From an uncultured Erysipelotrichaceae bacterium (GTDB lineage Bacteria > Bacillota_I > Bacilli_A > RF39 > UBA660), in the NCBI GenBank assembly GCA_902786275.1, contig CADACC010000002.1, positions 7,600-71,599 of the forward strand: 64,000 bases of DNA, written 5' to 3'. Below the pieces are notes generated by a model. That model saw nothing but the letters and a program-made list of their open reading frames with translations. It searched no databases and was not told the origin of the DNA. Position 1 is the stretch's first letter; every line of letters begins with the position of its first letter. Of the stretch, positions 6,330 through 29,286 are shown one piece after another. Position numbers and translations under genes: made by a program.

Positions 6330-7586
6330 ATGAAAAAGAAGTTACTAATAATTATGATATTTGTAGTATTGATTATAAGTTCTATCTTAGTTTATTTTTT
6401 TGTATTTAATAAAGATAAAAAAACTACTAAGAAAAAAGAAAAGATAATTTATACTGATGTAAAAGAAGATACAAATATAAAAATAAATAATGATTTAACA
6501 CTTGAATTTGGTGATAATAAATCTTTAAGTGATTATATAACTATTGATAATAGTGAGTTTAAAGATAAAGAAATTACTTATGATGAACTTGGAACTAAGA
6601 AAATAGAGTTTAGTTATAAGGACGCAGATGGAAAAATTAATTATCGATTTATTAATATAGATGTTGTTGATACAACAAGCCCATATGCATCAGTGCCTTC
6701 ATATAAAAAAATAAAAGTAAACTCTGATATATCATTTATAGATGACTTTTTATGTGCTGATAATCATGATAGAGTTCTAGAAAAAAGGTTAGACGGAGAG
6801 TTTGATTTACTTAGGGAAGGAACTTATACTGTTAAATTTGTAGCAGTTGATTCATCAGAAAATAAAACTGAAAAAACATTTATCTTAGATGTCGTAGCAG
6901 AGTTACCTAAACCAAGTCCTGGTGGTGGTAGTTCACAAATTAATTATTTAAATTATAGTGATTTATATAATCAATATAAAAACTCAAATACAAAAATTGG
7001 TATTGATATCTCTAGATGGCAAGGAGATGTTGATTTTAAAAAATTAAAAGAAAATAATGTTGAGTTCATAATGATAAGACTAGGTGGACAAGATGGAATA
7101 GATGGAGAATATTATATCGATTCTAAGTTCACTCAAAATATTACTGGTGCTTTAGAAAATGGTTTTGATGTTGGTGTATATTTTTATAGTTATGCTCATA
7201 CAAAAGAAGATGCCATTAATCAAGCTAAATATGTTATGGATCATTTAAAAGGATATAAAATAACTCTTCCAATTGTATTTGACTGGGAGTGCTGGAATAA
7301 GTTTAATAAGATGGGTATGAGTTTATTTGATTTAAAAAATGTCCAAGAAACTTTTATAAATGAAGTAGAGAAAAAAGGTTATACAGGATCAAGATATGGA
7401 AGTAAAAATTATTTAACAAATCTATGGCTTCCATCAAACAAACTTACTTGGCTTGCTCACTATGTATCTAATACTACTTATGAAGGAGAATACTACATGT
7501 GGCAAAGATGTGACACAGGTAAAGTAAGTGGTATAAATGGAGCAGTTGATGTTGATATCCTATATTTAGATAAATATAAAATATAA
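6330..7586 (+). CDS. membrane-anchored GH25-family lysozyme/muramidase with N-terminal extra domain
   Basis: N-terminal TM helix. C-terminal …KIGIDISRWQGDVDFKKLKENNVEFIMIRLG…GVYFYSYA… matches the GH25 (LytC/Cpl-1 type) catalytic signature. Confidence 0.7.
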   Translation: MKKKLLIIMIFVVLIISSILVYFFVFNKDKKTTKKKEKIIYTDVKEDTNIKINNDLTLEFGDNKSLSDYITIDNSEFKDKEITYDELGTKKIEFSYKDADGKINYRFINIDVVDTTSPYASVPSYKKIKVNSDISFIDDFLCADNHDRVLEKRLDGEFDLLREGTYTVKFVAVDSSENKTEKTFILDVVAELPKPSPGGGSSQINYLNYSDLYNQYKNSNTKIGIDISRWQGDVDFKKLKENNVEFIMIRLGGQDGIDGEYYIDSKFTQNITGALENGFDVGVYFYSYAHTKEDAINQAKYVMDHLKGYKITLPIVFDWECWNKFNKMGMSLFDLKNVQETFINEVEKKGYTGSRYGSKNYLTNLWLPSNKLTWLAHYVSNTTYEGEYYMWQRCDTGKVSGINGAVDVDILYLDKYKI

Positions 7587-9101: not shown

Positions 9102-9476
9102 ATGAATAAAAAAGGGTTTACTTTAATAGAACTTATTGCAGCAATCATGCTTTTAGGAATTATTTTAGTAATGGTTTCTTTAAATGTTGTTAGACACTTA
9201 GAGAAAAATAAAAGAAAAATAATTCTTGAAAGTGCCAAAAGTTATGTAACAGTAATTAATGATAATAATTATATAAATGATCCAGATAAAGTAATATCAA
9301 GTAGTACAGTTGAATCTATTAATCCAAAGATAAAAAAACAAATAGCAGGAGATTTACCTTCAAGTGGATCTGTAACTGTTAATGCTACAACTAAAAAAGT
9401 ATCTTCTGCAACACTGGTATTTGATAAATACAGAGTTGTATTTAATGGAACTAAATATACAATATCGGCTAATTAA
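9102..9476 (+). CDS. type IV pilin / pseudopilin (prepilin-type N-terminal cleavage/methylation domain, ComGC-like)
   Basis: MNKKGFTLIELIAAIMLLGIILVMV… has the class III signal peptide: G|FTLxE with Glu at +5 and a hydrophobic helix. Length is 124 aa. Confidence 0.75.
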   Translation: MNKKGFTLIELIAAIMLLGIILVMVSLNVVRHLEKNKRKIILESAKSYVTVINDNNYINDPDKVISSSTVESINPKIKKQIAGDLPSSGSVTVNATTKKVSSATLVFDKYRVVFNGTKYTISAN

Positions 9477-9543: not shown

Positions 9544-9579
9544 AAATATAGTATGAAAAATAGAGTATGGAGAGTAGCA

Positions 9580-11968
9580 ATGAAGAAGAGAAACGGTTTT
9601 ACATTAATAGAACTTATTGCAACAATTGCAATACTTACAGTTGTATCCCTTGTTGCAACTATTACTTATAATAAAATTAGAAAAGATGTTTTAGAACATC
9701 AATATTTAAATTTAAAGACTCTTATTGAAACTGCTGCAATTAAATACTCATCTAAAAATGGATACTCTAGTTTTTTTGTTCAAGACTTAATTGAAAATGG
9801 TTTTTTAGAACCAGATGATGAAACAGATGTATATGACCCAAGAAACGATAAATCTTTAAATTGTCATATTTTAAGTATTAGTGTTGAAAAAAATGGTATG
9901 CTTTCAGCTGATATGAGTGATAAATCATATGATGAAAGTGGTAAATGTAAAACATCATCACTTGATATATATGAAGCTAATTTAAGAATGAATGCTAAGA
10001 TTGAAGGAACTAGTGTAACATATCCTGTTAATTCACTTAATACAGGTACTAGTGCTCCATATATCTTTGAAGGATGGACAAGATTTAATCTTGATATAAC
10101 AGCTGATCCATCAAGTATTCCTGAATCTCTTCAAAATGGTAAATATGTATGGAATAGAAATAATGATGTAACTACTATAGAACCTAATAGAACTATTACA
10201 ACTAATGAGTATGGTGTTTATAATAATTATTATTACTTAGATTTCTATACAGAAGCTGGTACAAGATATCAAGCTAAAATGTTATATAAATTTGATAATG
10301 AAAAACCAACTATCTATCGTGACTCTAATGGAAAAGATAGAATAAAGTTTGTTGATCAAGAAGATAATAATAGATGGGCTAAATCTAAAAATGTCTTTAT
10401 CTATGCATCTGATAAAAATGGATCTGGTTTAAGCAAAATATATATTGGACGTGAAAAATGTGAATACGCTCTTGAAAATAATTTAACAAGACCTGCAATT
10501 CCAGGTATCATCCAAGTTTATGAAGTAAAAATTGAAACTGGTGATGCTAGAAATCAAAATGAAGAATATAATGTATGTGTTATTGATAAAGCAGGTAATA
10601 TAGCTAAATCAAAAACTAAAGTTACACTTGTTGATATAACTCCTCCAAGATGTGATCATGTGTCACCTGATTTAGGATCTATTGATGAACCTATTATTAT
10701 GGCTAACTGGATTAGACCAGATAGAACAATTAGAACATTCTGTGCAGATGATCACTATATAACTGAAGATGGTGTTGAAAGACACTTATGGGGTTCTGGA
10801 TGTGTACAAGATTATTATGATAAAACATATTCACCAACTACTATAAATGGTACAACAGAAATAACAGATAATGTTGGTTGGGTTTCAACTTGTGAATATA
10901 GAGTTTTAGTTGATAAAACTCCACCTATATGTGGTGTATCTGAAGATGAATCAACTGTATGGCAATATGAAGATAGAACTATAAAACAACACTATCATGA
11001 TGAACATAGTGGTCCACTTGAAGATACAGTAAATGTTAAAACATTCGTACCAACAACTTTATGTTGATAAAACTCCTCCATACATTTCATATGCAAGATA
11101 TGGTAGTGGAGCATCATTTTATGAATCTAGTTGTCCTGGATTAATATCATTTACATGGACTGACGATGAAAGTGGATTTGCTTCAGGAACTCTTAGCGCT
11201 TGGTATGGAGGAACAAAAACTGCTGATGGTATGGAAACATCTGATGATGTTAATGCTAAGTTATGGACTAATTCATCAAGGACATCAAGATGTGCTCTTG
11301 GAAATTATAGATTTGAGTTACAAGGAACGGATAATGTTGGAAATAAGTCAGCTGTAAAAACTTATAGTTATTCTGTTATACCTGATCCGCCACCACCACC
11401 ACAACCTCCAAGCAATTCCGGTTGTAATTCAAACAAATTTGAAGAATTTAGGGTAAAAGATTCTCATAGCTGTACATATTATATGGAGGTTAGTTATGAT
11501 GAACAAAGATGTCCAAGGTATGGTTGCAAGGAAACTGAATCCCTTTCTGATCTAACATTTACATACTATGCTCAAAAAGAAGGAGAAGCTGTTGATAGGG
11601 CATATAATGCAGTATCTACATCCGCTAATGCAGTTGCCAATCGTATGGGTACACAAATGTATTCCGCTGGTGATAATGGAACACTGTTTATATGGGCAGA
11701 TTGCTCAGCAGGCTCAAATGGATTATCTTGTACAGATAATCGTGACGGTTTTGCTACGTCATATACTCTTGGTAAATCAACATGTTCTGATCCAGAACTT
11801 GTTACTTCTGGATACCATCTTGGTGAATACAAGGTAACATGTAAAGTCAAAAGAACTAGATGTTTAAAATATAAAAATGGCGGGGAATACATGCAAAATA
11901 GTTCTACAGAGTATGTATATTATTGTTGTAAATCATTAAATTCTGATACACATTGTAAAGTAAGATGA
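9580..11968 (+). pseudogene. large (about 800 aa) prepilin-signal surface protein with repeated …VDKTPP… boundaries and a Cys-rich C-terminal domain; interrupted by a frameshift near 11030-11067
   Basis: The N-terminus MKKRNGFTLIELIATIAILTVVSLVA is a class III signal. The frame-1 ORF ends at 11067 (…VPTTLC*). A frame-2 ORF opens at 11033 and immediately reads …LYVDKTPPY…, the same motif as RVLVDKTPPICG at about 10905. This indicates one gene split by a 1-nt indel. The C-terminal part carries a PPPPQPP linker and about 14 Cys. Confidence 0.6.
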
Positions 11969-13585: not shown

Positions 13586-13610
13586 TTAATATTTAAGAAA
13601 GGTGATATAT

Positions 13611-14711
13611 ATGAAAAATATTATATTAACAGGTGATAGACCAACTGGTAAGCTTCATATTGGACACTATGTTGGTTCACTTAAAAATAGAGTTAAACTT
13701 CAAAATGAAGGTAACTATGAAAAAATGTATATAATGATAGCTGATGCTCAAGCATTAACTGATAATTCAGGTAATCCACAAAAGGTAAGAGATAATATTA
13801 TTACTGTAATGCTTGATTACTTATCAATTGGACTTGATCCAGAAAAAGTAACATTTTTTATTCAATCAGAGGTAAGAGCATTACCTGAAATAACAGCTTA
13901 CTATATGAATTTAGTAACACTTCCAAGACTTCTTAGAAATCCAACTGTAAAATCAGAAATTACAATGAGAGGTTATGATTCAGAATCAAAAGGTATACCT
14001 GTTGGATTTGCTAATTATCCAATTAGCCAAGCTGCAGATATTACAGCATTTGATGCTAATATTATACCTGTTGGTGATGATCAACTTCCAATGATAGAGC
14101 AAGCAAGAGAAATAGTTAGAAGTTTTAATGGAACATATAATAAAGAAGTTTTAATTATGCCTGAACCAAAACTTCCAGATAATGAAGCTTGCTTAAGACT
14201 TCCAGGTTTAGATGGAAATGCTAAAATGAGTAAATCACTAAATAACTGTATTTATTTATCTGATGATTCTAAAACAGTAAAAGAAAAAGTATTTAGTATG
14301 TATACAGATCCAAATCATATTAAAGTTGAAGATCCTGGTAAAGTAGAAGGTAATATGGTATTTACTTATTTAGATGCTTTTTCATCTGATGAAGACTTTA
14401 AAAAGTATTATCCAGAATTTAATAATCTAGATGAACTTAAAAAAGCTTATTCAAATGGTGGAATTGGTGATATGAGAATTAAAAAATTCTTATATGAAGT
14501 AATTGAAGAACTACTTACTCCAATAAGAGAAAAAAGAAAAGAATATATAAATAAAATTCCATATATTGTTGAAGCTCTTGAAAAAGGAACAAAAGAAGCT
14601 AACGAAAAAGCTGATGAAGTTTTAGATAGAATAAAAGATGCTCTTGGAATAAGATATTTTAATAAAGAATTTATTGAAGAACAAACAAAAAGATTTAATG
14701 AAGAAAATTAA
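13611..14711 (+). CDS. trpS: tryptophan--tRNA ligase
   Basis: Class I aaRS with the HIGH-type motif (TGKLHIGHYVG) and KMSKS. RBS AAAGGTGA is 5 nt upstream of ATG 13611. The ORF track's 13602 start is an in-frame GTG. Confidence 0.9.
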   Translation: MKNIILTGDRPTGKLHIGHYVGSLKNRVKLQNEGNYEKMYIMIADAQALTDNSGNPQKVRDNIITVMLDYLSIGLDPEKVTFFIQSEVRALPEITAYYMNLVTLPRLLRNPTVKSEITMRGYDSESKGIPVGFANYPISQAADITAFDANIIPVGDDQLPMIEQAREIVRSFNGTYNKEVLIMPEPKLPDNEACLRLPGLDGNAKMSKSLNNCIYLSDDSKTVKEKVFSMYTDPNHIKVEDPGKVEGNMVFTYLDAFSSDEDFKKYYPEFNNLDELKKAYSNGGIGDMRIKKFLYEVIEELLTPIREKRKEYINKIPYIVEALEKGTKEANEKADEVLDRIKDALGIRYFNKEFIEEQTKRFNEEN

Positions 14712-14797: not shown

Positions 14798-15907
14798 ATG
14801 ATGTATTATTTTGATTATAGTGCAACAACTAAAACAGATAAAAAAGTTTTAGAAAGATTCACTGAAGTATCACAAGAATACTTCGGTAATGCAAATTCAT
14901 CATATGAGTTTGCAAGAAAATGCAAGAAAGTTATTGATGATACAAGCTGTATAATCGCCGACTACTTTGGCGTTTTACCTAATGAAATTATTTATACTTC
15001 TGGTGCAAGTGAAGCTAATAATTTAGCTATCAAGGGAACAGCAGAACTTACAAATAAAAAGCATATTATTACAACTAAGATTGAGCACTCATCAGTTGTA
15101 TCAACATTATCTTATTTACAAAGTAAAGGTTATAAAGTTGATTTCGTAAATATGACTGATGAAGGAACTGTTGATATAGAGCATTTTAAAAGCTTAATAA
15201 ATGACGATACTTTTTTAGTTACAATGTGCGCTGTTGATAGTGAACTAGGTATTAAGCAACCTATTGAAGAAATAGGTAATATTTTAAAAGATTATGATGA
15301 CATAATTTTCCATGTTGATATAACTCAGTGTGTTGGAAAAGTTCCAGTTAATTTAGATAATATTGATCTTGCATCATTTTCAGGACATAAAATTTATGCT
15401 CCAAAAGGAATAGGTGCTTTAATTAAGAAAAATACTGTTAAATTATCACCACTTATTCATGGTGGTAAATCAACAACTGTTTATAGAAGTGGTACTCCAC
15501 AAAACGAACTTATTGCATCACTTGGAAAAGCATTTGAAATATTAATGCCAAATGTTGAAAATAACATGAAATATGTTCAAGAGTTAAACGATTATTTAAA
15601 AGAAAAATTAAATGGTATTGCGCTAATTAATTCAACAAATAAGTCTATTCCAAATGTTTTAAATATAAGTATTCCAGGTGTTGTAAAACAAGATATACAA
15701 AACTATTTATCAGATAGAGAAATATATGTTTCACTTAATACTGCATGTAGTTTAAATACTGATTATTCTAAAGTAGTATATGAACTTTATAGTGATATGG
15801 ATAGGGCTAAATCATCAATTAGAATTAGTTTATCTTATTTAACAACAAAAGATGAAATAGATTATCTTGTTGATAATATAAGAGGGTATTTAAATGAAAA
15901 TAATTAA
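14798..15907 (+). CDS. cysteine desulfurase (NifS/IscS class V aminotransferase)
   Basis: …YFDYSATT…GASEANNLAIKG…SFSGHKIYAPKGIGAL… are hallmark NifS motifs. The start is ambiguous between ATG 14798 and ATG 14801. Confidence 0.85.
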   Translation: MMYYFDYSATTKTDKKVLERFTEVSQEYFGNANSSYEFARKCKKVIDDTSCIIADYFGVLPNEIIYTSGASEANNLAIKGTAELTNKKHIITTKIEHSSVVSTLSYLQSKGYKVDFVNMTDEGTVDIEHFKSLINDDTFLVTMCAVDSELGIKQPIEEIGNILKDYDDIIFHVDITQCVGKVPVNLDNIDLASFSGHKIYAPKGIGALIKKNTVKLSPLIHGGKSTTVYRSGTPQNELIASLGKAFEILMPNVENNMKYVQELNDYLKEKLNGIALINSTNKSIPNVLNISIPGVVKQDIQNYLSDREIYVSLNTACSLNTDYSKVVYELYSDMDRAKSSIRISLSYLTTKDEIDYLVDNIRGYLNENN

Positions 15908-16148
15908 AATAACAGCTTCTTGGTGTCCATCTTGTTTAATAATGAATGGTATGATAGATGATATTATTTCTAAATATAATTTAGAAATGATTAGTTTAGA
16001 TTTTGATTTAGATCAAAGTGAAGTTGAAAAATATAATGTTGGAACTTTGCTTCCAGTACTTATTAAATTAGATGATAATGATAATGAAATATCAAGAATA
16101 AAGGGAGAAAAATCAGAAAAAGAAATCGTAGAATTTATAGAAGGATAA
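15894..16148 (+). CDS. thioredoxin-family small protein (WCPSC active site)
   Basis: 84 aa containing …TASWCPSCLIM…. It overlaps the nifS-like gene by 14 nt. Confidence 0.7.
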   Translation: MKIIKITASWCPSCLIMNGMIDDIISKYNLEMISLDFDLDQSEVEKYNVGTLLPVLIKLDDNDNEISRIKGEKSEKEIVEFIEG

Positions 16149-16155: not shown

Positions 16156-17373
16156 ATGAAGAAGTATATAACGCTAATTATTGCACTTATTTTATTAATT
16201 ACACCAATATATACTAAAGCTTTATCTGTTTCTAAAAAATCAAATGAAAAAATCTATTTATTTTATGGAAGAGAGTGTCCTCATTGTGAAGAACTAATGA
16301 AATATTTAGATGAGTTATTTTTAGATAAGAAATATAAAGATGTAAAGCTTGAGAAATATGAAGTGTGGCATAATAAAGAAAATAATAGTAAGCTTGTTGA
16401 AGTAGCGAAGATTCTTAAAGAAGATGCTGTTGGGGTTCCATACATGGTAATTGGAACAAATGTTGTTCAAGGATTTTCTGATGCAAATAAAGAAGAAGTA
16501 AAAGCCATTATAGATTTTTACCTTTATGAAGAATATTTTGATCCAGCAGGTGACTATTTAAATAAAACTGATACATCAAAACTACCAACTTTAAAATATG
16601 AAAAAGAAAATAAAGAAGAATATGATGTTCCGGTTTTAGGTAAAATAAATGCAAAAAATGTATCTTTATTATTAGTATCAGTTATTATAGGTGCAGTTGA
16701 TGGATTTAATCCTTGTGCTATGTGGATACTACTTTTCTTACTTAGTTTACTTATTTCAACTAAAGATAGAAAGAAAATGTGGATACTTGGTTTAACATTT
16801 ATTTTAACTAGTGGAATTGTATATCTATTATTTATGCTTTCTTGGTTAAATGTAGCTAAATATACATCAAGCATTATTGTAATAAGATACTTAATAGGTG
16901 TATTTGCTTTAGTATTTGGATCTATTAATTTATATAGGTTTATTAAAACTTTAAAAGAAAAAGATGTTGGTTGTGATGTAACTGATGCTAACAAAAAAAG
17001 AAAAATAATGGATAGAATAAGAAAAGTCCTTGATCAAAACAAATTACTTTTAGCAGTTCTTGGTATTATGCTTTTAGCAGTATCAGTAAATTTAATAGAA
17101 CTATTATGTTCACTAGGTCTTCCTGTTATGTATACAGAAATACTTGGTTTGAATAATTTATCAACTCTTGAGTATGGCTTTTATATGTTTATATATATCT
17201 TATTCTTCTTAATAGATGATCTAGTAATATTTATTATTGCTATGAAAACATTAAAACTTAAAGGTATATCAAATAAATATATGAAATACTCACATCTAAT
17301 AGGTGGCTTAATAATGTTAATCATAGGTCTTTTAATGATAATTAAACCATCTTGGTTATTATTTAATTTTTAA
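16156..17373 (+). CDS. secreted thioredoxin-like domain (CPHC) fused to a CcdA/DsbD-type thiol-disulfide transporter membrane domain
   Basis: Signal peptide, then …FYGRECPHCEEL…, then the membrane core …GAVDGFNPCAMWILLFLL… (CcdA/DsbD signature), with a second Cys in CSLGLPV. Confidence 0.7.
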   Translation: MKKYITLIIALILLITPIYTKALSVSKKSNEKIYLFYGRECPHCEELMKYLDELFLDKKYKDVKLEKYEVWHNKENNSKLVEVAKILKEDAVGVPYMVIGTNVVQGFSDANKEEVKAIIDFYLYEEYFDPAGDYLNKTDTSKLPTLKYEKENKEEYDVPVLGKINAKNVSLLLVSVIIGAVDGFNPCAMWILLFLLSLLISTKDRKKMWILGLTFILTSGIVYLLFMLSWLNVAKYTSSIIVIRYLIGVFALVFGSINLYRFIKTLKEKDVGCDVTDANKKRKIMDRIRKVLDQNKLLLAVLGIMLLAVSVNLIELLCSLGLPVMYTEILGLNNLSTLEYGFYMFIYILFFLIDDLVIFIIAMKTLKLKGISNKYMKYSHLIGGLIMLIIGLLMIIKPSWLLFNF

Positions 17374-17377: not shown

Positions 17378-17407
17378 ATGCTTTAAACTTAAAGCATTAT
17401 TTTTTTG
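17378..17407 (+). terminator. Rho-independent terminator
   Basis: AATGCTTTAA actt AAAGCATT + ATTTTTTTT. Confidence 0.65.
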
Positions 17408-17428: not shown

Positions 17429-17457
17429 TTGAATATAAATAGATTTATTGTTATAAT
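17429..17457 (+). promoter_or_regulatory. sigma-A promoter (TTGAAT, 17 nt, TATAAT)
   Basis: -35 TTGAAT at 17429-17434, a 17-nt spacer, and consensus -10 TATAAT at 17452-17457. It lies about 30 nt upstream of the pilin-LRR gene. Confidence 0.5.
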
Positions 17458-17485
17458 TTAAACATAATAAGGGATTGTGAATAGT

Positions 17486-19447
17486 ATGAAAAAGAAAAAT
17501 GGTTTTACATTAGTTGAACTTATTGTTACTTTAGTAATCTTAATTGTCTTAACTTTAATTGCAACAAATATTATTTTAAGTCGTATAAATAAAACAAGAC
17601 AAGAAGCCTTTTTAGATAAAGTAAAAATATATATTAAAGGCTTAGATGCTGATGTTATGGATAACAAAGAATACGATGAGTTTAAGGTATATAACTTTCC
17701 AGGATATAAAATAAAAGCTGTTGATGAACAACCTGATGCTGGCTTCATTATGAAAAATGAAGATAATGAATACCGTGCTCAAATATGGAATAACAAACTT
17801 GAAAAATGTGCAGTAAAAGGTTTTTCAGATACCGATGTTAAAATATCTAAAACTATAAAAAATAAAGCAGACTGTGTATCAAGTTATGCATCAGCTAATA
17901 ATGTTATTGGACAAAGTATATATAATTTATTTGGTATTGAAATGAAAGATTCTGATGGAAATGATGTTGTTATTAAAGAATCTTGTTATACAGTTAATAG
18001 TAGTGGACAAATAACTGACTATGATGCTGACAAATGTGGTTATATTTTTATAACTCCAGATAAAATAGATGGTAAGGATATAACAGGTTTTAATACTGAT
18101 TTTTATAATAATTTAAGAAATAAGGATGTAACTGACTTTTATATAGCTAATGTTCCTAAACTTACAACAATCCCATCTGGATTTTTATCAGGCAATTCAA
18201 ATGTTAAGAATATTATGATTTATGGAAATCCTTTATTAACAGAAATACCTGCTGGATTCTTATCAGGTGATAGAAATCTAGATAGTGTAAGAATAATAAA
18301 TAATCCAAACCTTACCACTTTTGCTCAAGGTAATTTCTTCTTCAGTCAAACAGATCATGGATTTATTAAAAAAATAGAATTTGCTGATTTACCAAAACTT
18401 TCTACTTTCTCAGCTGTATTTGCTTATGTAGATTTTGAAGAATTTATTTTAAGAAATATTGGTGAGGACTCTGGTGATGGAATTCAAATAAAAGATAATG
18501 CATTAACAAACAATATAGGAGTTAATAACGCAAGACTTATTATTGAAGATAATAAAGGTTTATATTATGGTTCTGATGGTGCTATGTCATCATTCTATGC
18601 TGCAGATCACGATAAATCCAGTATAAGTTATGTGTCTATTAAAAATAATAAAAGACTAGATCTTTTATCATATAGTTTTCTTTGTAATGTTAAATATAAT
18701 AATGCAGAAATATATATTGAAAATAATGACTCTTTAACAGGTATTAGAAATAGTGCTTTTATTGGTGATGGTACTATAAAAAAATTAATTATTAAAAATA
18801 ATAAAAATTTAACAGGATTTGGTGAATCTGCATTAAGTGGTAATACATCAAATGGTGGACTACAATTTGTTAATGGCGATTTAATTATTGAAAACAATGA
18901 TAGCCTTGCGGAAATAACTAATAGTGCTATGGGTGGTTTAGCAGGAACAATTAATAAGTTCTCAATATCAAATAATAAGAGCTTATTAACATTTACAAAT
19001 GGAGCCCTAACAAATGATTCTAATAACAAACCAAATATAAAAGAATTTATTGTTAAAAATAATGCAAAATTATCAATTATTGACAATGGTACAATTTCTA
19101 ACTATAAGATTGATAAGGCAGTATTTGAAAATAATGCATCTCTTGATAATTTATGTCGATATAGTGCCTTTTCAAATAATGAGATAAATGTTCTTGATTT
19201 GTCCAAATCACAATTTACTACAGTTGAACCATCATGCGGAATATATAATAATTCAATAAATACCTTAATACTACCAACAACACTTACTAACTTTACACCA
19301 GGTCATTTAACAAGTGGTGTTAAAAAAGAAGTATATGCGGGTGGGCCAAATAAATGCGCACTTAATAACTATTTTATAAATTATAATCCAGATGGATCAA
19401 TAGCAGGATATAATGTTAATCCATCAATAGTGCCTGTTTGTGATTAA
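17486..19447 (+). CDS. prepilin-signal protein fused to BspA-type leucine-rich repeats (LRR_5-like), about 650 aa
   Basis: N-terminus MKKKNGFTLVELIVTLVILIVLTLIA is a class III signal. The C-terminal two thirds are tandem about 23-aa repeats (…IPSGFLSGNSNVKNIMIYGNPLLTEIPAGFLSGDRNLDSVRIINNPNLTTF…) typical of BspA/Treponema LRR surface proteins. ATG 17486 is preferred over the in-frame GTG 17477. Confidence 0.75.
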   Translation: MKKKNGFTLVELIVTLVILIVLTLIATNIILSRINKTRQEAFLDKVKIYIKGLDADVMDNKEYDEFKVYNFPGYKIKAVDEQPDAGFIMKNEDNEYRAQIWNNKLEKCAVKGFSDTDVKISKTIKNKADCVSSYASANNVIGQSIYNLFGIEMKDSDGNDVVIKESCYTVNSSGQITDYDADKCGYIFITPDKIDGKDITGFNTDFYNNLRNKDVTDFYIANVPKLTTIPSGFLSGNSNVKNIMIYGNPLLTEIPAGFLSGDRNLDSVRIINNPNLTTFAQGNFFFSQTDHGFIKKIEFADLPKLSTFSAVFAYVDFEEFILRNIGEDSGDGIQIKDNALTNNIGVNNARLIIEDNKGLYYGSDGAMSSFYAADHDKSSISYVSIKNNKRLDLLSYSFLCNVKYNNAEIYIENNDSLTGIRNSAFIGDGTIKKLIIKNNKNLTGFGESALSGNTSNGGLQFVNGDLIIENNDSLAEITNSAMGGLAGTINKFSISNNKSLLTFTNGALTNDSNNKPNIKEFIVKNNAKLSIIDNGTISNYKIDKAVFENNASLDNLCRYSAFSNNEINVLDLSKSQFTTVEPSCGIYNNSINTLILPTTLTNFTPGHLTSGVKKEVYAGGPNKCALNNYFINYNPDGSIAGYNVNPSIVPVCD

Positions 19448-19478
19448 AAGCTATACATATAATGTATAGCTTTTTTTC
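19448..19478 (+). terminator. Rho-independent terminator
   Basis: AAAGCTATACAT ataa ATGTATAGCTTT + TTTT. Confidence 0.7.
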
Positions 19479-19536
19479 TTTTCTTGATTAAAACAAGATT
19501 AAAAGTTAAAATAAAATTATAGTAGGTGAATGTAAA

Positions 19537-20730
19537 ATGGAATTAGTACCAAAACTTGTTCTTGCTAAGAATTTATATTTTTCACTATCAACTGTTAGAA
19601 ATCAACATCACTTTAAAATGAGAGATATTGATTCACTTGATGCAAGAAAAATAAAGGGAAAAAAATATATATTAGTTAAACTAAATAGTGGTAGAACTTT
19701 TACAACACCACTTAGAGAATTTAAACTAAATAAAAAAGGTAAAATAGCCTTAGGAACATTATCAGTTTTAACTGCAGGAACAATTGCTGCATCAATTGCG
19801 GGTTTTAAATACACAAAAACTGATGATGGTAAAGTAAAAATAACAGATGAGAAAGTTTATGCAACTGCAGAAGATATATTTATTGATGAAGATGATAATG
19901 TAGTTGATTATACTAGTGATGAAATAAATTCAGTTGAGTATATTGCTAATGAAGAAACTGTAACCGATGAAGTTACTTTAGCGGAGGCAATGGATATTGA
20001 TGAAACAACTAGTGTAGATGAAACTCAGTATATAGAAAATGAATATAGTAATATTAGAACGTTATCCGTTGAAGGAGATTCAACAAGAGGTATTGATGCA
20101 TATAATAGAATAATAGATAACTATTATGATGATATTGTTAAATATGGTGAAATGTATGGAATAGATCCTGCTATTATTGCAGCTCTTATGATGGAAGAAG
20201 GCGGAACTACATATGATCCTAATGCTGAAGAAAACATGGGAGCAATCGGTTTTGGACAAGTAAGTTCTAGTGATTGGAATAATCATGAGTTTAATACATA
20301 TAACTTTATAACTGGTGAATATGATTATTACAAACTTGATGTAAATGACTTAAAAAATAATCCGACAAAACAAATCGAGGCAATTGCAAGAATGCTTCAA
20401 GAATCAGCTATTAGGTACCATGGTAATTTCTCAGCTATAACTGTTTGTTATAATCAAGGCTGTGGAACAGTTGCTAATATTACAAATAATTTAATAAATA
20501 GTGGTGATTATTCATCATCTATGGATGTATACAATAATGAAAATGCTTTATTAATATTTGAAAATGATCCATATACATATGGAAATAAAGATTATACAAA
20601 TAGAATTGTTACATATTTGGATGAAATATTAAAAAATGAAGTATTTGGTAGTAGCGTTGCTACTATTAAACTTCCAGATGGAAGTGTATTTAATTACGAA
20701 ACAAGTATTCAAAATGAACTATCAAGATAG
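19537..20730 (+). CDS. membrane-anchored lytic transglycosylase-like protein (SLT/GH23-type domain)
   Basis: TM anchor followed by …GEMYGIDPAIIAALMMEEGGTTYDPNAEENMGAIGFGQVS…. This matches the SLT motif pattern (E-S/G … GAxGLMQ). Confidence 0.55.
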   Translation: MELVPKLVLAKNLYFSLSTVRNQHHFKMRDIDSLDARKIKGKKYILVKLNSGRTFTTPLREFKLNKKGKIALGTLSVLTAGTIAASIAGFKYTKTDDGKVKITDEKVYATAEDIFIDEDDNVVDYTSDEINSVEYIANEETVTDEVTLAEAMDIDETTSVDETQYIENEYSNIRTLSVEGDSTRGIDAYNRIIDNYYDDIVKYGEMYGIDPAIIAALMMEEGGTTYDPNAEENMGAIGFGQVSSSDWNNHEFNTYNFITGEYDYYKLDVNDLKNNPTKQIEAIARMLQESAIRYHGNFSAITVCYNQGCGTVANITNNLINSGDYSSSMDVYNNENALLIFENDPYTYGNKDYTNRIVTYLDEILKNEVFGSSVATIKLPDGSVFNYETSIQNELSR

Positions 20731-20789
20731 GCAAATTAGACAAATATTTAATGTTTTGATATAATAGCGAAAGCAGGTGAATAATATTT

Positions 20790-21371: not shown

Positions 21372-21378
21372 TAAATAA

Positions 21379-21407
21379 AGCTAGATAGTAAACTATCTAG
21401 TTTTTTA
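21379..21407 (+). terminator. Rho-independent terminator
   Basis: AAGCTAGATAGT aa ACTATCTAG + TTTTTT. Confidence 0.7.
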
Positions 21408-21455: not shown

Positions 21456-22727
21456 ATGAAAAATAGTAAGGCTTTTACACTAATTGAACTTATAGCTGTA
21501 CTTGTTATTTTAAGTTTATTAACAGTTATAGCAGTTCCAGCTATTTCTCATTTAATAAAGAGAAATAAAGATAAATCATTTAATACAAAAGTAAATGTAA
21601 TTATTAAACAAGCTAAACAATATTCATATGATAATGAAAACTTTTTAAATGGTAGTAACAAAAAATACGATGGTTATGTATGTAATACCATAACTGTAGG
21701 AGAGTTAAAAAATCTTGGTTACTTAGAAGAATTAGAAAAAGAATCAGGAACTAATAAAATAACTGATCCTAGAACTAATGAATCTATGGAAAACTATACA
21801 GTTATGCTTTATATAAAAAGTAATACAACAGGAACTGGTACAAATAAAACTGCTGGTGCCTTGGTTGGAACTATAAAAAATATTGATAAATGTGAATCAA
21901 GTGGAGACATATTTATTTATACAGGAAGAGAAGAAGTTTTTACTGCAGCAACAGCGGGAAAATATAAAATTGAAGCCTGGGGTGCAGAAGGTGGATCTGC
22001 AAGTAAAACATACCGTGGTGGATATGGTGCATATTCATATGGTGAGATAACTCTTGCTCAAAATGAAAAACTATATGTAAACGTTGGTGGCCAAGGTGGA
22101 GTAACATTACAAGCAAATGTTATAGAACTTGGTGGATATAATGGTGGAGGAATTGCTGTTAATGGTAATTCTGACTCACTAAGTTTAAATGTTGGAGCAG
22201 GAGGTGGAGCATCGTCCGTTGCTTTATCATCTGGACTACTTAGAAGTTTTGAAAATGACCCATCACAAGTTATTATTGTAGCTGCTGGTGGAGGCGGAGG
22301 AAAATATTACGCCGATAGATACCATGCAACCGGTGGAGATGCTGGAGGAATTGCTGGTGGCGATGCCAAAGACTTACAATGGTATGATAACTACGGTCGC
22401 GGTGCATCTCAAACTGCAGCCGGTTGTAATTCAACTGGTGGAAGTTGTGGTTCATTTGGTGCATCTAACTTACCAGGTTCTCCAACACCAACAACTGGTG
22501 GTGGCGGAGGCTACTATGGTGGTTCTGGTGGACAATATGGTGGAGGCGGAGGCTCAAGCTATATAGGAAACTCTAGATTAACTAATAAAGAAATGTATTG
22601 TTATAACTGTACTGAATCATCAGATGCATCAACTAAGACAACTTCAACAACGTGTGTTGAAGCTGATGCAAAAATAAACTGTGCTAAAAAAGGAGCAGGT
22701 GCAGTTAGAATTACTCACGTTGAATAG
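21456..22727 (+). CDS. prepilin-signal protein with C-terminal glycine-rich (GGxGG-repeat) domain; paralogue 1
   Basis: N-terminus MKNSKAFTLIELIAVLVILSLLTVIAVPA. The C-terminal domain is …KIEAWGAEGG…YRGGYGAYSYGEITL…LYVNVGGQGG…GGYNGGG…AAGGGGG…GGGGGYYGGSGGQYGGGGGSSYIGN…AKKGAGAVRITHVE. Its motif order is shared with the three genes at 26727-31527. Confidence 0.75.
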   Translation: MKNSKAFTLIELIAVLVILSLLTVIAVPAISHLIKRNKDKSFNTKVNVIIKQAKQYSYDNENFLNGSNKKYDGYVCNTITVGELKNLGYLEELEKESGTNKITDPRTNESMENYTVMLYIKSNTTGTGTNKTAGALVGTIKNIDKCESSGDIFIYTGREEVFTAATAGKYKIEAWGAEGGSASKTYRGGYGAYSYGEITLAQNEKLYVNVGGQGGVTLQANVIELGGYNGGGIAVNGNSDSLSLNVGAGGGASSVALSSGLLRSFENDPSQVIIVAAGGGGGKYYADRYHATGGDAGGIAGGDAKDLQWYDNYGRGASQTAAGCNSTGGSCGSFGASNLPGSPTPTTGGGGGYYGGSGGQYGGGGGSSYIGNSRLTNKEMYCYNCTESSDASTKTTSTTCVEADAKINCAKKGAGAVRITHVE

Positions 22728-24797: not shown

Positions 24798-26315
24798 ATG
24801 GAAAAGCAAATGGAAAGACAATACGAAATAAATGATTTCTTAAAAACTTTATTTAGTTATAAGGTTGATAATAATACTGAAATAACACCTGAAGTTGTTT
24901 CTAGTTTTTTGTATACTTATGATCTTTCACCTGAAGAATTAAATTATACATATCGTAATATTTATCCTTACTTTGAAAAAGATTTTCAAAATACAAAAAC
25001 TAAAGTTCATGAAGATCCAAGACAAAAGAATTTCTTACAACTTAGAACAAGAAATAAATTTAATGATAATAATTATATAAAAATGTATATAAATGTTAAC
25101 CCAACATACATCTATAATGTTGTAAAACAAGTAATAGATTTTTTAAATGCAAATGGAATAGATCACAACTCAAAAGTAAGTTCTAGTCCAAGAAGTGATG
25201 GATTTGTTGTTAGATTAAAAAATGCATCTGATGCTAAAGCATTAGCTGATTATATTAATAATGATCAATCACTTGTAAGTGTTATAAGAAAACCTATACC
25301 TTTTATGTTTAGAGATGGTGTTGTAGGTTTATCATATGATAAGAATTTATCATATATAACAGTTTTAACTAATTTAATAACTAAATATATTAATAGTAAA
25401 GAAAATGCAAGTGAAATATCATATAAAGATTTCTGTCAGTTCCAAAGAGATAATATTTATAATATTTTCTCAGCTAAAAATAAACTAGCTGGTTTAAAAG
25501 AATTAGTATCAGGCGATGAATATAAAAAATCACTTGGTAGAATCAGAACTATTAGTAAAGCTTATATGGAAGAAGATTTGTTATCAAATTATTTAAATGT
25601 GTATAATGACTTAGCATTATCTACAATTGAAAATGATGAAAGTAAATATTATCAACTATATAATGGATTTACTAATACAGAACTTCAAAAGAAACAAGTA
25701 GCATCAATTACTGATCTAGTTTCTTTAGTTAAAAAAGATACTATTAATGAGAAGAAAGAATTAATAGATGATTATATTTTATATGCATATAATACATATA
25801 AGAACATAGATACTGTTAGAAAACAATTATTTGAATTTCAAAAAGGTCATTATAGCGCTATAACTAGAGATCAAAATTTTAGAGTAAGACTTGCTGATCT
25901 AGATGAAGAAGATTTAAGAACTATTACCAATCCAAGTATTGATAAATATATTAAAGATGTTTTAGCAAAAGAACTTAATGTCGAATCCGGTGAAAAAGGA
26001 ATCGATAAATATCAAATATTTATTAATGCTTGTAAGGCAACATATCAAACTCATGGTGTTGAGCAACTTAAAAAAGCAATAGAACTTGCTCTAACTAACA
26101 GAAACTATCAAGCATTTACAAATCAAAATGGTGGCTTTAGAAGAGAACTAATAAAATATGTTTTACCTGAAGAAGTTATTAATTTTGTAAATGAAACAAT
26201 TGAAAAGAATGTTAAAGTAAGAAATACATCAATTCCACTTCATGAAGAGTTTACAAATATATTTGTTGCACTAGTAATGCCAAATGAATCAATGTATAAA
26301 GGTTTAGCAGCATAA
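24798..26315 (+). CDS. hypothetical protein (505 aa), no recognisable domain
   Basis: Long uninterrupted ORF, probably co-transcribed with the small acidic ORF upstream. Confidence 0.5.
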   Translation: MEKQMERQYEINDFLKTLFSYKVDNNTEITPEVVSSFLYTYDLSPEELNYTYRNIYPYFEKDFQNTKTKVHEDPRQKNFLQLRTRNKFNDNNYIKMYINVNPTYIYNVVKQVIDFLNANGIDHNSKVSSSPRSDGFVVRLKNASDAKALADYINNDQSLVSVIRKPIPFMFRDGVVGLSYDKNLSYITVLTNLITKYINSKENASEISYKDFCQFQRDNIYNIFSAKNKLAGLKELVSGDEYKKSLGRIRTISKAYMEEDLLSNYLNVYNDLALSTIENDESKYYQLYNGFTNTELQKKQVASITDLVSLVKKDTINEKKELIDDYILYAYNTYKNIDTVRKQLFEFQKGHYSAITRDQNFRVRLADLDEEDLRTITNPSIDKYIKDVLAKELNVESGEKGIDKYQIFINACKATYQTHGVEQLKKAIELALTNRNYQAFTNQNGGFRRELIKYVLPEEVINFVNETIEKNVKVRNTSIPLHEEFTNIFVALVMPNESMYKGLAA

Positions 26316-26726: not shown

Positions 26727-27977
26727 ATGCCTAAGTATAAAAATAATAAAAAGGGATTTACTTTAGTTGAGCTTTTAGCAGTTGTTATAATTCTAATAAT
26801 CATTATGACAATTGCAATTACTACTGTAAATAAACAAATGGAAAAAACTAGAAAGAATGCATTTGTTGCAGATGTAAATATTTTTATAAAAGCTGCACAG
26901 CAAAAATATTCATCTGATAGATCTAACCATGCTGCTGGTGAAGATTTATTTCATAATGCTATAGAGGGAAAAGTTTGCTATTCAATAGATCAACAATTAA
27001 TTGGTAAATACGCAGAAAAAACAAGTGAAAGTTATACTGGATCAGTTGAAGTATGTTATGGTGAAGAATGTGAATATGCAATTAAAGTGTGGGCAACAGA
27101 TGGAGAACATTATGTTGACGGGGCAACATATTTTAGAGATAAAAAAGATATCAAAAAGAAATATACAACTGATTATCCTTTAACTTGTGGTGTTGAAGCT
27201 TTAGGTGGCGGTGGAACAGGTGGAGACTTACTTACTGCTGAATTCGAATCTAGACCTGAAGAATATAAAATGACAATTGTTAAAGATGGTGTATATTCCC
27301 TAGAAGCTTGGGGAGGACAAGCAGGACGTTACATGGAACTTCGTGGTGGTTATGGCGGATATGCATATACTGAAATTGAACTTCATGTTGGAGACACACT
27401 ATACATTAATGTAGGTGGAGCTGGAGGCGATTATAGTTCTGTTACTGGATATGGTAAGGGAGGCTATAATGGCGGTGCTAATGGAGCCAGTAATAGACAT
27501 GCAGGTGGCGGAGGAGCTACTACAATAACAACAAAACCAGGTTTTCTTTATGATAATGTACTACCAGATTATGTTTATTTAGTTGCAGGTGGCGGAGGAG
27601 CTAGATCTGGTTCAGAATGCTGCTGCAATGCCATGACAAGTGGAAATAGTGGTGGAGGAGCATGTGATGAATCAAATAGAATTTGCCAGTCTAATCACAA
27701 TTACGGGAAAGCGACATACCCTGGTGCTGGTGGTGGGTTTAGAGCTCAAGCTTCAGATATAGGTTGTGGCTATCCATCAGGTGGATCAGGTTATATTGGT
27801 AATCCACTAACAAAAAATGGTGTTATGTATGGTTATAATGCTACTGAAAACACATCTGCAAAAACTAAAACTATACCAACTACAAATATAAGTGAAAAAC
27901 CAATCTCTGGTTATGCTAAACAGGGTGCAGGTTTTGCAAGAATAACTTATATAGGAACATTTACTAATCAAGAATAA
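26727..27977 (+). CDS. prepilin-signal protein with glycine-rich GGxGG-repeat domain and CCC motif; paralogue A
   Basis: …NKKGFTLVELLAVVIILIIIMTIAI… followed by a conserved globular region (…KVCYSIDQQLIGKY…GSVEVCYGEECEY…WATDGEHY…). The Gly-rich domain reads EAWGGQAGRYMELRGGYGGYAYTEIELHVGDTLYINVGGAGG…GGYNGG…AGGGGATTI…VAGGGGARSGSECCCNAM…GGSGYIGNPLTKNG…AKQGAGFARITYIGTF. Confidence 0.75.
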   Translation: MPKYKNNKKGFTLVELLAVVIILIIIMTIAITTVNKQMEKTRKNAFVADVNIFIKAAQQKYSSDRSNHAAGEDLFHNAIEGKVCYSIDQQLIGKYAEKTSESYTGSVEVCYGEECEYAIKVWATDGEHYVDGATYFRDKKDIKKKYTTDYPLTCGVEALGGGGTGGDLLTAEFESRPEEYKMTIVKDGVYSLEAWGGQAGRYMELRGGYGGYAYTEIELHVGDTLYINVGGAGGDYSSVTGYGKGGYNGGANGASNRHAGGGGATTITTKPGFLYDNVLPDYVYLVAGGGGARSGSECCCNAMTSGNSGGGACDESNRICQSNHNYGKATYPGAGGGFRAQASDIGCGYPSGGSGYIGNPLTKNGVMYGYNATENTSAKTKTIPTTNISEKPISGYAKQGAGFARITYIGTFTNQE

Positions 27978-28015
27978 GTAATATTATAGAAATATAGAAG
28001 AAAGTGGTGTTTAAA

Positions 28016-29245
28016 TTGAATAAGAAAGGATTTACTTTAGTAGAACTTTTAGCAGTTACAATAATACTTATAATTATTACAACTATTGTAATATTTACCG
28101 TTAATAAACAAATGGAGAAAAGTAGACTTAATGCATTTTTAGATGAAGCTAATGTATTTGCTAAAGCTGCTCAACAAAAATATTCAACAGATAGAACTAC
28201 CGAAGCCATTTCAGAGGATTTATTCCATAATGCAATAAAGGGGAAGGTTTGTTATTCAATTGAACAACAACTTTTAGGTAAGTATGTTGAAAAACCTAAT
28301 AGTAAATATACTGGATCAGTTGAAGTATGTTATGGACTTGACTGTGAATATACTTATAAAGTATGGATTACAGATGGAGAACATTACATTGATGGACAAA
28401 CTGAAATAAATGATTACAATGACATAAAAGAAAAATATACAACTGAGTATCCTTTGACATGTGGTGTTGAAGCTGCTGGTGGTGGAGGATCTGGCGGAGA
28501 CTTACTTACTGCAGAGTTTAAATTTTCAGGATCTCAATATGAAATGACTATTGCAAAAGATGGAGTATATGCTCTTGAGGCTTGGGGTGCTCAAGGAGGA
28601 CGCTTTGGAGAAACACGTGGAGGATATGGCGGATATGCTTATACAGAAGTTGAACTTCATGTTGGTGATAAACTTTATATTCAAGTTGGAGGCCAAGGTG
28701 GTGTAAACGGTGTTGGAAATCCAGGTGGATATAATGGTGGTGCAGATGGTCAAGGTTCCGGTGGCGGTGGAGCAACAACAATTGCAACCAAACCAGGATT
28801 CATATATGATCCTATATTAATTGATTATGTATATATCATTGCCGGAGGTGGCGGCGGAGTTGCAAGATGGTGCTGCTGCTGTGGTGGAATCTCTAGAGGA
28901 TTTAATGGTGGTGGATACTGTGCAGAACCTTCGCCTAATAGAGGTACTATTTGTCAAGCTGGACATAGTTATGGAAAAGCTACTGGCTACGGAGGCGGTG
29001 GAGGATATCGTGCCCAAAGTAGCCAAGTTGATAGTGATCATCATATGGGTGGATCTGGTTATATTGGTAACCCACTTACAAAAAATGGCATCATGGCTGG
29101 ATTCAACGTTCCAGAAAGTACTGCTGCAAATACAAGAACTATTAGTACAACAAATGTATCAGAAAAACCTATATCACAATATGCAAAACAAGGTGATGGG
29201 TTTGCAAAAATAACTTATATAGGAACATTTAGTGACCAAGAATAA
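28016..29245 (+). CDS. prepilin-signal protein with glycine-rich domain and CCCC motif; paralogue B (TTG start)
   Basis: Same architecture as paralogue A: …NKKGFTLVELLAVTIILIIITTIVIF…EAWGAQGGRFGETRGGYGGYAYTEVELHVGDKLYIQVGGQGG…ARWCCCCGGISRGFNGGGYC…GGSGYIGNPLTKNG…AKQGDGFAKITYIGTF. The start is placed at TTG 28016 by alignment with ATG 29287 of paralogue C; both are preceded by GAAAGTGGTG. Confidence 0.7.
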   Translation: MNKKGFTLVELLAVTIILIIITTIVIFTVNKQMEKSRLNAFLDEANVFAKAAQQKYSTDRTTEAISEDLFHNAIKGKVCYSIEQQLLGKYVEKPNSKYTGSVEVCYGLDCEYTYKVWITDGEHYIDGQTEINDYNDIKEKYTTEYPLTCGVEAAGGGGSGGDLLTAEFKFSGSQYEMTIAKDGVYALEAWGAQGGRFGETRGGYGGYAYTEVELHVGDKLYIQVGGQGGVNGVGNPGGYNGGADGQGSGGGGATTIATKPGFIYDPILIDYVYIIAGGGGGVARWCCCCGGISRGFNGGGYCAEPSPNRGTICQAGHSYGKATGYGGGGGYRAQSSQVDSDHHMGGSGYIGNPLTKNGIMAGFNVPESTAANTRTISTTNVSEKPISQYAKQGDGFAKITYIGTFSDQE

Positions 29246-29286
29246 AACTATATAAAGAATAAACCATTGAAAGTGGTGAAATATAA

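Follow-up and report, generated by a model that had tools for sequence, protein, structure and literature searches.

The window analysed here, a stretch of 64 kb (64,000 nucleotides) of contig CADACC010000002.1, contains two neighbouring genes on the plus strand, one encoding a pilin-type protein with a solenoid that resembles leucine-rich repeats (LRR) and the other a membrane-anchored enzyme of the SLT/GH23 type; they are called the pilin-LRR gene and the SLT gene in the following. An initial annotation had proposed that the SLT enzyme serves the fibre of the pilin-like proteins. No support beyond proximity was found for this proposal, which is opposed by a terminator between the genes, by a gene inserted between them in a relative, by a locus that lacks the pilin-LRR gene and by the frequency of chance adjacency. 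We consider it likely that the genes are two separate neighbouring units, a modular type IV pilin and an SLT enzyme in a housekeeping context.

The G+C content of the window is 25-35%, and nearly every gene lies on the plus strand. Pfam scans and gene annotations revealed that SpoIVA, CotE, EzrA, RpoB/RpoC, TrpS, EngB and Der are encoded, and RpoB scores higher with chain 6wvj_C (RNA polymerase of Bacillus subtilis) than with 7l7b_C (that of Clostridioides difficile) and 8i23_C. On these grounds the window is judged to be chromosomal DNA of a spore-forming, Bacilli-like Firmicute of ~27% G+C. For comparison the contig k141_74279 of the ENA metagenome ERZ27280387 (ERZ27280387:k141_74279, 82,957 bp) was used, whose fetched stretches are 100% identical to the window save two small indels. 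The features of the pilin-LRR gene are as follows:

17486-19447, + strand: modular type IV pilin gene, 653 amino acids (aa) from the ATG, assigned by its open reading frame (ORF), N_methyl/TIGR02532 and AlphaFold model; the protein consists of a prepilin signal, a poorly modelled pilin module, an LRR-like solenoid of ~16 coils and a Cys-containing C-terminal cap
17486-17581, + strand: class III (prepilin) signal with the leader MKKKNG, a predicted cleavage before Phe7 and the hydrophobic alpha1-N helix
18128-19321, + strand: LRR-like solenoid, residues ~215-612, ~16 repeats of 22-34 aa, delimited by model strands and stacking

The start of the pilin-LRR gene was set at the ATG at position 17486, and public contigs call the same 653-aa gene; the ORF lister begins at a GTG at 17477 and gives a translation of 656 aa. 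With a slash at the predicted cleavage site, the N-terminus reads MKKKNG/FTLVELIVTLVILIV, which places Gly6 at -1, Phe7 at +1 and Glu11 at +5. The short basic leader thus ends in Gly and is followed by a hydrophobic stretch of ~20 residues with Glu at +5 (MKKKNG/FTLVELIVTLVILIVLTLIATNIIL), as expected of a prepilin. The class III signal that had been proposed for this gene was confirmed by two profiles above their cut-offs, PF07963 (N_methyl; 28.9 bits, cut-off 21.2, residues 4-29 of the 656-aa translation) and TIGR02532 (19.6 bits, cut-off 16.3), while none of the equivalog pilin models (ComGC, GspG and others) was reached by the protein. Cleavage and methylation of the signal are given here as predictions. 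In the AlphaFold model, built with five homologues, the mean predicted local distance difference test value (pLDDT) is 71, with ~85-95 over most of residues 170-647. The presumed pilin module shows a helix (residues 9-40) and short strands (residues 68-120), and pLDDT is <50 over residues 22-165. Only over the first ~50-75 residues does the protein resemble other prepilin proteins of the window, as is expected if different modules were grafted on a common N-terminus. The pilin-LRR protein has a very narrow family: a word-indexed search of 5.8 billion sequences gave four clusters.

In the model, the solenoid contains 16 main strands at regular spacing from residue 217 to 617, the pattern of an LRR solenoid, and manual stacking of the repeats gave the consensus I-x-x-L-x-I-x-N-N-x-x-L-x-x-I-x-x-x-A-F-x-G. 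In a Foldseek comparison of the model with the PDB the best 50 matches were all LRR proteins, including Toll-like receptors (TLRs), LGR4/5, an NLR and the bacterial entries 4h09, 4cp6 and 4fdw, with E-values of 3.4e-3 or higher, none of them at E <= 0.001, and TM-scores <= 0.31. The LRR_5 model (PF13306) scored 14.7 bits on one fragment (E = 0.03; cut-off 27.7) and gave no match at E <= 0.1 on the whole protein. LRR_8 (PF13855) performed better, with 18.1-21.2 bits under a cut-off of 27, and in the homologue P0037, which is 46% identical, it reached 37.6 bits and thereby exceeded this cut-off. The initial annotation had counted about 20 BspA-type LRRs in this protein: the LRR-like nature of the solenoid is supported by model and Foldseek matches, the count has to be lowered to ~16 coils, and the BspA type was not recovered by LRR_5. 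On the basis of the model, the protein combines a pilin-type signal with an LRR-like solenoid in one chain, and the BspA-type assignment is unproven.

Nine Cys residues are present in the pilin-LRR protein, of which C624 and C652 are invariant in the homologues. Directly upstream of the gene an 84-aa thioredoxin (CPSC; 15894-16148) is encoded, then a 405-aa protein (16156-17373) whose N-terminus resembles a signal and which further comprises a thioredoxin-like domain with CPHC (weak Pfam matches only) and a polytopic membrane domain. Together with the Cys residues of the pilin-LRR protein, this thioredoxin pair may point to extracytoplasmic disulfide handling.

The second gene of interest carries the following features:

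19537-20730, + strand: SLT gene, 397 aa, for a predicted membrane-anchored SLT/GH23 peptidoglycan lytic transglycosylase, assigned by its ORF and PF01464
19537-19743, + strand: predicted cytoplasmic N-terminal domain, residues 1-69, ending in a conserved YKLNKKG-like motif
19744-19806, + strand: single transmembrane helix, residues 70-90 (IALGTLSVLTAGTIAASIAGF), Kyte-Doolittle maximum 1.77 for the 19-residue span from residue 70
19807-20136, + strand: acidic, predicted extracellular linker and pre-domain helix, residues 91-200, poorly conserved
20137-20481, + strand: SLT domain, residues 201-315, with the motifs MME-E221-GG, GFGQ (238-241) and CYNQGCG (304-310)
20197-20199, + strand: codon GAA of Glu221, the predicted catalytic acid, invariant in the family alignment A3
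20482-20727, + strand: C-terminal extension, residues 316-397, in which Y353, L365, A375 and Y387 are invariant in alignment A4

That this gene encodes a membrane-anchored SLT/GH23 protein, as had been supposed, was verified by a PF01464 match (SLT; 33.4 bits, cut-off 21.3, E = 3.5e-8, residues 201-315) and by the hydrophobic helix at residues 70-90; of the two domain families that had been named for HMM (hidden Markov model) verification, SLT was thus recovered and LRR_5 was not. The strings IAALMMEEGG and NMGAIGFGQVS, on which the supposition was based, both occur in the translation. In the 61-sequence family alignment (A3) invariance is restricted to E221, G238, N306 and G308, while conservation at Q241 is >= 90%. 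The SLT motifs II and III are represented by GFGQ (238-241) and YNQG (305-308), and motif I has the form E-G (E-R-G in the wider family) instead of the usual E-S. The MltE/EmtA segment 'AIESGG' and the goose-type lysozyme segment 'SRES' each contribute the Glu that aligns with Glu221; in both enzymes it is the catalytic residue. A passing SLT match and an aligned, invariant glutamate are therefore both present, and because of the profile alignment to MltE/EmtA and of this invariance the catalytic Glu, G-F/L-x-Q and Y-N-x-G are all assigned to the protein. In a search of the PDB the family profile matched MltE/EmtA (9e-10), MltC (4e-7), goose-type lysozymes and Slt70. The enzyme is hence a candidate lytic transglycosylase or GH23 lysozyme, two activities between which its sequence does not discriminate.

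Outside of the SLT domain the protein shows an asymmetry of charge. Residues 1-69, a domain kept in close relatives (13-sequence alignment A4), contain 17 K/R and 5 D/E, and residues 92-180 contain 27 D/E and 5 K/R and are length-variable and gapped in the alignments A1 and A4. The positive-inside rule predicts from this an N-in, C-out topology. The N-terminal domain has a pLDDT of 63-75 for residues 11-60 and no match in Pfam or NCBIfam; its predicted cytoplasmic position suggests control or localisation of the enzyme from inside the cell. The C-terminal extension (residues 316-397) matches no known family.

A full HMMER pass over 1.84 billion cluster representatives yielded 242 relatives of the SLT protein at E <= 1e-3, mostly of 340-460 aa, each representing a cluster at 50% identity. 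Where the layout was inspected, it consists of a cytoplasmic domain, a transmembrane helix, a linker and the SLT domain. Among the 61 aligned members 52 match Pfam SLT, and some members match IagB and flagellar lytic transglycosylase models; no specific NCBIfam model names the family. The word-indexed protein search gave four clusters for the SLT protein and seven with the 61-sequence profile, and no relative was found when the species-representative genome collection was scanned with the SLT protein and with alignment A1. Almost identical copies of the SLT gene are present on contigs of 326-357 kb. For the scan of loci A4 was used, the 61-sequence alignment being too diverse. In a subgroup of distant family members (P0049-P0052, P0056) the cytoplasmic domain begins with a conserved 'LDFSWA' motif, and in other subgroups an N-terminal domain of ~100 aa takes the place of the ~70-aa one described above; as the subgroups differ at the N-terminus, the cytoplasmic part of the family appears to be modular. 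The family is an uncharacterised one of ~350-450 aa, found so far in low-G+C DNA, and not categorically new.

The transcription signals around the two genes, together with the downstream neighbour of the SLT gene, are:

17429-17457, + strand: promoter-like site for the pilin-LRR gene, TTGAAT-17-TGnTATAAT, 10/12 consensus matches with extended -10, a consensus match only
19446-19474, + strand: intrinsic terminator of the pilin-LRR gene, 13-bp stem, 3-nucleotide (nt) loop, T-run
19484-19512, + strand: promoter-like site for the SLT gene, TTGATT-17-TAAAAT, a consensus match only
20737-20765, + strand: promoter-like site before engB, TAGACA-17-TGnTATAAT, 11/12 matches, also in the related locus L003 (5068-5096)
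20790-21371, + strand: gene of an engB/ysxC-type GTPase (MMR_HSR1, 2.7e-19), downstream neighbour of the SLT gene

The promoter-like site of the pilin-LRR gene is preceded by a terminator-like hairpin (~17380-17406) after the upstream gene. Behind the pilin-LRR gene the RNA of 19446-19474 folds with -16.3 kcal/mol (z = -6.64), and 0/200 shuffled sequences were as stable. The SLT gene had been placed 89 nt after this terminator; the order of the genes is correct, and the distance of 89 nt applies to the stop codon of the pilin-LRR gene, the terminator stem being 62 nt away from the SLT start at 19537. The same two hexamers (TTGATT, TAAAAT) stand at the same place before the SLT gene of L003 (3827-3855), a relative of 55% identity, and TTGATA-17-TAAAAT is found before the SLT homologue of the locus L015 (9443-9471). 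No terminator lies between the SLT gene and engB, and the first plus-strand terminator after the SLT gene (21377-21404) is located past engB. Because of the terminator at 19446-19474 and the promoter-like site kept in L003 and L015, the SLT gene is predicted, from these sequence signals alone, to be transcribed apart from the pilin-LRR gene and possibly together with engB.

Comparison of gene order in related loci (L001, the locus of the source contig, is the same DNA as the window) led to the same picture. The engB gene directly follows the SLT gene in L001, L003, L005, L013, L014 and L015, with a gap of 3 nt in L015. On the upstream side, four contigs (L003, L004, L006, L007) whose SLT proteins are 55-58% identical carry an unrelated, cytoplasmic-looking gene of ~400 aa directly before the SLT gene; L003, the only one of the four that is long enough to show it, also has a pilin-LRR gene, and there the ~400-aa gene sits between the two. 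Its coordinates are 2574-3806 in L003, 3-881 in L006 and 8186-9373 in L015, and it is absent in the window (19447-19537). With 27% identity (E = 5e-29), the L003 and L015 versions of the ~400-aa protein are homologues; no Pfam match is recorded on L003, and the protein has no obvious membrane segment. L015 lies on a 166-kb contig on which the gene order of the window is kept from Tex to RpoB, with 73-97% identity for most of the flanking housekeeping genes. It presents the order thioredoxin-membrane gene, ~400-aa gene, SLT homologue, engB, 155-aa pilin, der, and the pilin-LRR gene is absent from the locus. The SLT homologue is 29% identical to the protein of the window over residues 189-397, so that the alignment includes the C-terminal extension.

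The gene orders of L003, L004, L006, L007 and L015 thus point to a conserved core of ~400-aa gene, SLT gene and engB. Among the upstream partners of the SLT gene, the ~400-aa gene appears to be the best conserved, and it seems to have been lost in the window. The pilin-LRR gene was encountered only in the window and its closest relatives, a distribution that would fit a later gain on one side. No prepilin motif was detected in any frame of nine loci with remoter members of the SLT family (L011, L012, L016-L022), and the neighbouring genes there are unrelated, an RseP-like protease, an HD protein and a helicase-like fragment being among them. The conserved partners of the SLT gene suggest a housekeeping or growth-linked role.

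The pilin-LRR gene is one of eight ORFs with a prepilin motif in the 64 kb, all of which have N_methyl matches (starts at 9102, 9553, 17486, 21456, 26727, 28004, 29287 and 63537). Mostly they are single units between terminator-like hairpins, dispersed among housekeeping genes: they are found before trpS, between engB and der, before spoIVA and before fmt (extents, where not given elsewhere: 9102-9476, 9553-11968, the cluster 26727-31527, and 63537-63947). Two of them are small classical pilins of 124 and 136 aa. Four encode prepilin-type proteins with an ALK/LTK glycine-rich domain (GRD, PF12810), namely 21456-22727 (E = 4.8e-35), 26727-27977 (9e-16), 28004-29245 (2.5e-19) and 29287-31527 (1.4e-15), the last of which also has three Listeria-Bacteroides (Flg_new) repeats; homologous pilin-GRD genes occur in L003, L005 and L015. 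As an architecture, the pilin with an ALK/LTK glycine-rich fold seems more unusual than the pilin-LRR fusion. The repertoire varies among relatives, L015 having a 148-aa pilin where the window has the 124-aa pilin plus the ~816-aa pair. As a consequence of the scattering of the eight genes, about 10 of the ~50 non-pilin genes of the window border a prepilin gene, and adjacency by chance is to be expected for ~1 gene in 5. Genes of the PilB, PilC, PilD or PilM type were found neither in Pfam scans of the larger ORFs of the window nor in the annotations of the fetched parts (~80 kb) of the 83-kb contig, and inspection by eye of the regions that precede the SLT gene and each of the eight prepilin genes revealed, as shared elements, only generic promoter- and terminator-like ones.

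Some further observations concern the surroundings. In comparison with k141_74279, 61 nt are missing at ~11058 (ORFs 9553-11067 and 11033-11968), which breaks an 816-aa prepilin-type protein into ORFs of 504 aa and 311 aa, and gaps of a further ~29 nt lie between ~11058 and 16151. The 61-nt gap may be an assembly difference, strain variation or a genuine frameshift. A second wall hydrolase, a GH25 muramidase (6330-7586, E = 5.6e-27), is encoded a few genes upstream of the 9102/9553 pilin pair, and L015 has kept it in the corresponding position (61% identity). A 505-aa protein encoded between der and the pilin-GRD cluster (24798-26315) shows a marginal match to the HopA1 effector family (PF17914, 23.5 bits, cut-off 22.7). 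Neither Rfam families at gathering score nor tRNA genes were found in the whole window, and no Rfam match indicated a T-box upstream of trpS (13602-14711).

Under the reading of two separate units, a prepilin peptidase encoded elsewhere would cleave the pilin-LRR protein behind Gly6. The hydrophobic helix at the new N-terminus would thereafter anchor the protein in the membrane and/or carry it into a type IV filament, most plausibly at its tip, where the ~16-coil LRR rod could act as a binding (adhesin) module for a ligand. The gene would be a lineage-specific accessory gene, one of at least eight scattered prepilin-type genes. The SLT/GH23 domain of the second protein would cleave the MurNAc-GlcNAc bond of peptidoglycan near the membrane by means of Glu221. 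With the ~400-aa gene and engB, rather than the pilin-LRR gene, as its conserved chromosomal partners, its most likely task would be general or locally targeted wall remodelling and not a dedicated pilus service.

A different fate of the pilin-LRR protein, with an unlikely but appreciable chance of being correct, is that it is no filament subunit at all: the prepilin signal would be a cleavable anchor or export tag and the LRR rod would be displayed directly on the surface, by analogy perhaps with archaeal substrate-binding proteins that carry class III signals, a parallel to be taken with the same reserve. This would suit the presence of at least eight prepilin genes with bulky, differing modules (LRR, ALK_LTK_GRD, Flg_new) as single units outside of any pilus operon, the lack of assembly genes in the examined parts of the 83-kb contig and the pLDDT of <50 for the globular pilin module (residues 22-165). 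It is countered by the Glu at +5, typical of polymerising subunits, which the protein has kept, by the small classical pilins (124 and 136 aa) of the same window, and by the fact that assembly genes may lie elsewhere in the genome. Moreover, bulky modular pilins such as PilB and PilC of Streptococcus sanguinis are true filament subunits (PMC8179133).

The proposal that the SLT enzyme is a specialised transglycosylase, which opens the thick peptidoglycan locally for a type IV filament or for prepilin display, appears improbable to us. In its favour, the domain is intact, the enzyme is predicted to be tethered at the membrane, where a filament would emerge, and prepilin genes lie on both sides in the window. 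The separation of the pilin-LRR gene and the SLT gene by a terminator and a promoter-like site of its own, the unrelated gene between them in relatives and the absence of the pilin-LRR gene in L015 argue against such a service, as do the nine more distant family loci, which lack a prepilin motif. In the examined parts of the 83-kb contig no PilB/PilC/PilD/PilM-type gene was seen that would place the SLT gene within a machine cluster, no common upstream motif was seen for SLT and pilin genes, and ~20% of the non-pilin genes of the window adjoin a prepilin gene anyway.

Several points have nevertheless to be set against two separate units. The order SLT, engB, pilin is kept in all four lineages with enough context (window, L003, L005, L015), and in L015 these three genes are only 3 and 11 nt apart with no terminator-like site between them, so that they may be co-transcribed there. 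Given that the informative relatives are close to each other, this order may on the other hand simply be inherited and may say little either way. The structural basis has its gaps as well: no LRR HMM reaches its curated threshold on the pilin-LRR protein itself, and AlphaFold, given 4 sequences, modelled the SLT protein poorly (mean pLDDT 41.6), for which reason its fold rests on sequence profiles. From the functional side, peptidoglycan hydrolases can assist type IV filaments in passing the thick wall of Gram-positives; LytF was reported to raise extracellular ComGC and to promote extrusion of the Com pilus in the monoderm S. sanguinis (PMC13192262), and the passage of filaments across the monoderm wall has been described as open (PMC6916266). 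On account of the conserved SLT-engB-pilin order, the LytF precedent, the open question of wall crossing and the close kinship of the relatives, the pilus-dedicated enzyme was left with a small share of our confidence instead of being dropped.

A combination of both alternatives, in which the prepilin signal is a general display route for a large and fast-changing set of bulky surface modules (LRR rod, ALK/LTK-type glycine-rich domains, Listeria-Bacteroides repeats) from scattered single-gene units and the membrane-bound SLT enzyme beside engB and a pilin gene acts as the wall-opener for these filaments or subunits, is still more doubtful. If true, it would be the first SLT-type pilus-associated transglycosylase in a monoderm.

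Only a slim chance is likewise given to a function of the SLT enzyme in sporulation or germination, whether during engulfment or in the remodelling or lysis of the cortex. Genes for SpoIVA and CotE are present in the organism, and engulfment and cortex turnover in Firmicutes depend on membrane-tethered enzymes that cleave glycan strands. The known sporulation enzymes of that kind (SpoIID, SleB, CwlJ), however, use other folds, the SLT gene is preceded by a single promoter-like site, kept in L003, which looks like a housekeeping sigma-70/sigma-A site, and the gene is not adjacent to sporulation genes, SpoIVA being 11 kb away. An origin of the SLT gene from a phage, plasmid or conjugative element, comparable to VirB1-, CwlT- or tape-measure-type transglycosylases, is scarcely credible and was set aside. 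SLT domains are frequent on such elements, and weak SLT-domain similarity exists to an internal virion protein of a Delftia phage (34.7% identity, 29% of the protein covered) and to 4hpe, a Tn916-like hydrolase (E = 6.5e-4). No close relatives were retrieved, however: A4 had none in viral contigs, and phage and plasmid records showed only generic SLT similarity, with a single weak plasmid match. No integrase or transfer genes occur among the annotated neighbours, and the flanks show housekeeping synteny, with the order of trpS, a cysteine desulfurase-like gene, thioredoxins, engB and der preserved in relatives (73-89% identity).

If the link between the SLT enzyme and pili were true, it would bear on how type IV filaments cross the thick Gram-positive wall; as it is unsupported, the locus has a more limited practical value. 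The locus provides a record of a very large modular pilin of the LRR type from an uncultured Firmicute, for which a gut- or rumen-type origin is a guess, and it defines an uncharacterised family of membrane-anchored SLT proteins with a cytoplasmic domain that comprises at least 242 clusters and is named by no curated model. More worth attention than the adjacency of the SLT gene are the prepilin-type genes, which are unusually numerous and dispersed in this lineage.

Both genes belong to known kinds, the modular pilins and the SLT-domain enzymes. The best solved matches to the family profile of the SLT protein are MltE/EmtA (2y8p) and MltC (4c5f) of E. coli, with which the motif I Glu and G-L/F-x-Q align. 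These are outer-membrane lipoproteins of a diderm, whereas the protein of the window is built like a type II protein of the inner membrane, in which a cytoplasmic domain of ~70 aa and an acidic linker are combined with a ~80-aa C-terminal extension and with E-G instead of E-S in motif I; in pairwise comparison the similarity to the E. coli enzymes is marginal (E = 0.04-0.5). An account by Koraimann from 2003 reportedly names specialised transglycosylases for secretion and surface machines, VirB1 for type IV secretion systems, EtgA/IagB for type III secretion systems, SltF/FlgJ-type enzymes for flagella and BfpH and R64 PilT for type IVb pili. They share the catalytic domain family with the SLT protein, whose family profile matches EtgA weakly; these specialised enzymes are encoded inside the cluster of their own machine, in contrast to the SLT gene, which follows a terminator and has a separate promoter-like site. 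As a functional precedent for a link between SLT enzyme and pilus only LytF of S. sanguinis was found, a wall hydrolase of a monoderm as well, which unlike the SLT protein is a secreted Bsp-repeat and CHAP peptidase/amidase under competence control and is unrelated in sequence.

For the solenoid of the pilin-LRR protein, the bacterial LRR surface proteins PcpA (4cp6), EUBVEN_01088 (4h09) and BACOVA_01565 (4fdw) took the ranks 7, 12 and 30 in the Foldseek comparison (E 0.009-0.036, TM <= 0.3), which is no better than the matches to animal TLR/LGR ectodomains, and none of the three is named as a pilin fusion in the title of its PDB entry. The 'AF' signature, seen directly in the repeats, is that of BspA/TpLRR-type repeats, whose consensus we presume for this comparison; the N-N pair, by which the repeats differ from these three proteins, resembles the Asn ladder of typical LRRs. 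BspA-type LRRs are presumably covered by the entry IPR026906. This entry is among the 15 commonest added modules of modular pilins, which are widespread, with >1,200 proteins in 264 architectures (Raynaud et al., 2021; PMC8179133). The closest counterparts in architecture are PilB (pilin and vWA) and PilC (pilin and lectin) of S. sanguinis. The pilin-LRR protein differs from them in its much larger added module (~440 aa, ~16 coils), which stays under every LRR HMM threshold, and in being encoded as a solitary unit among housekeeping genes without a pil operon, its incorporation into a filament being putative. It shares with them the monoderm setting and the build, a class III signal and helix that are followed by a bulky binding module.

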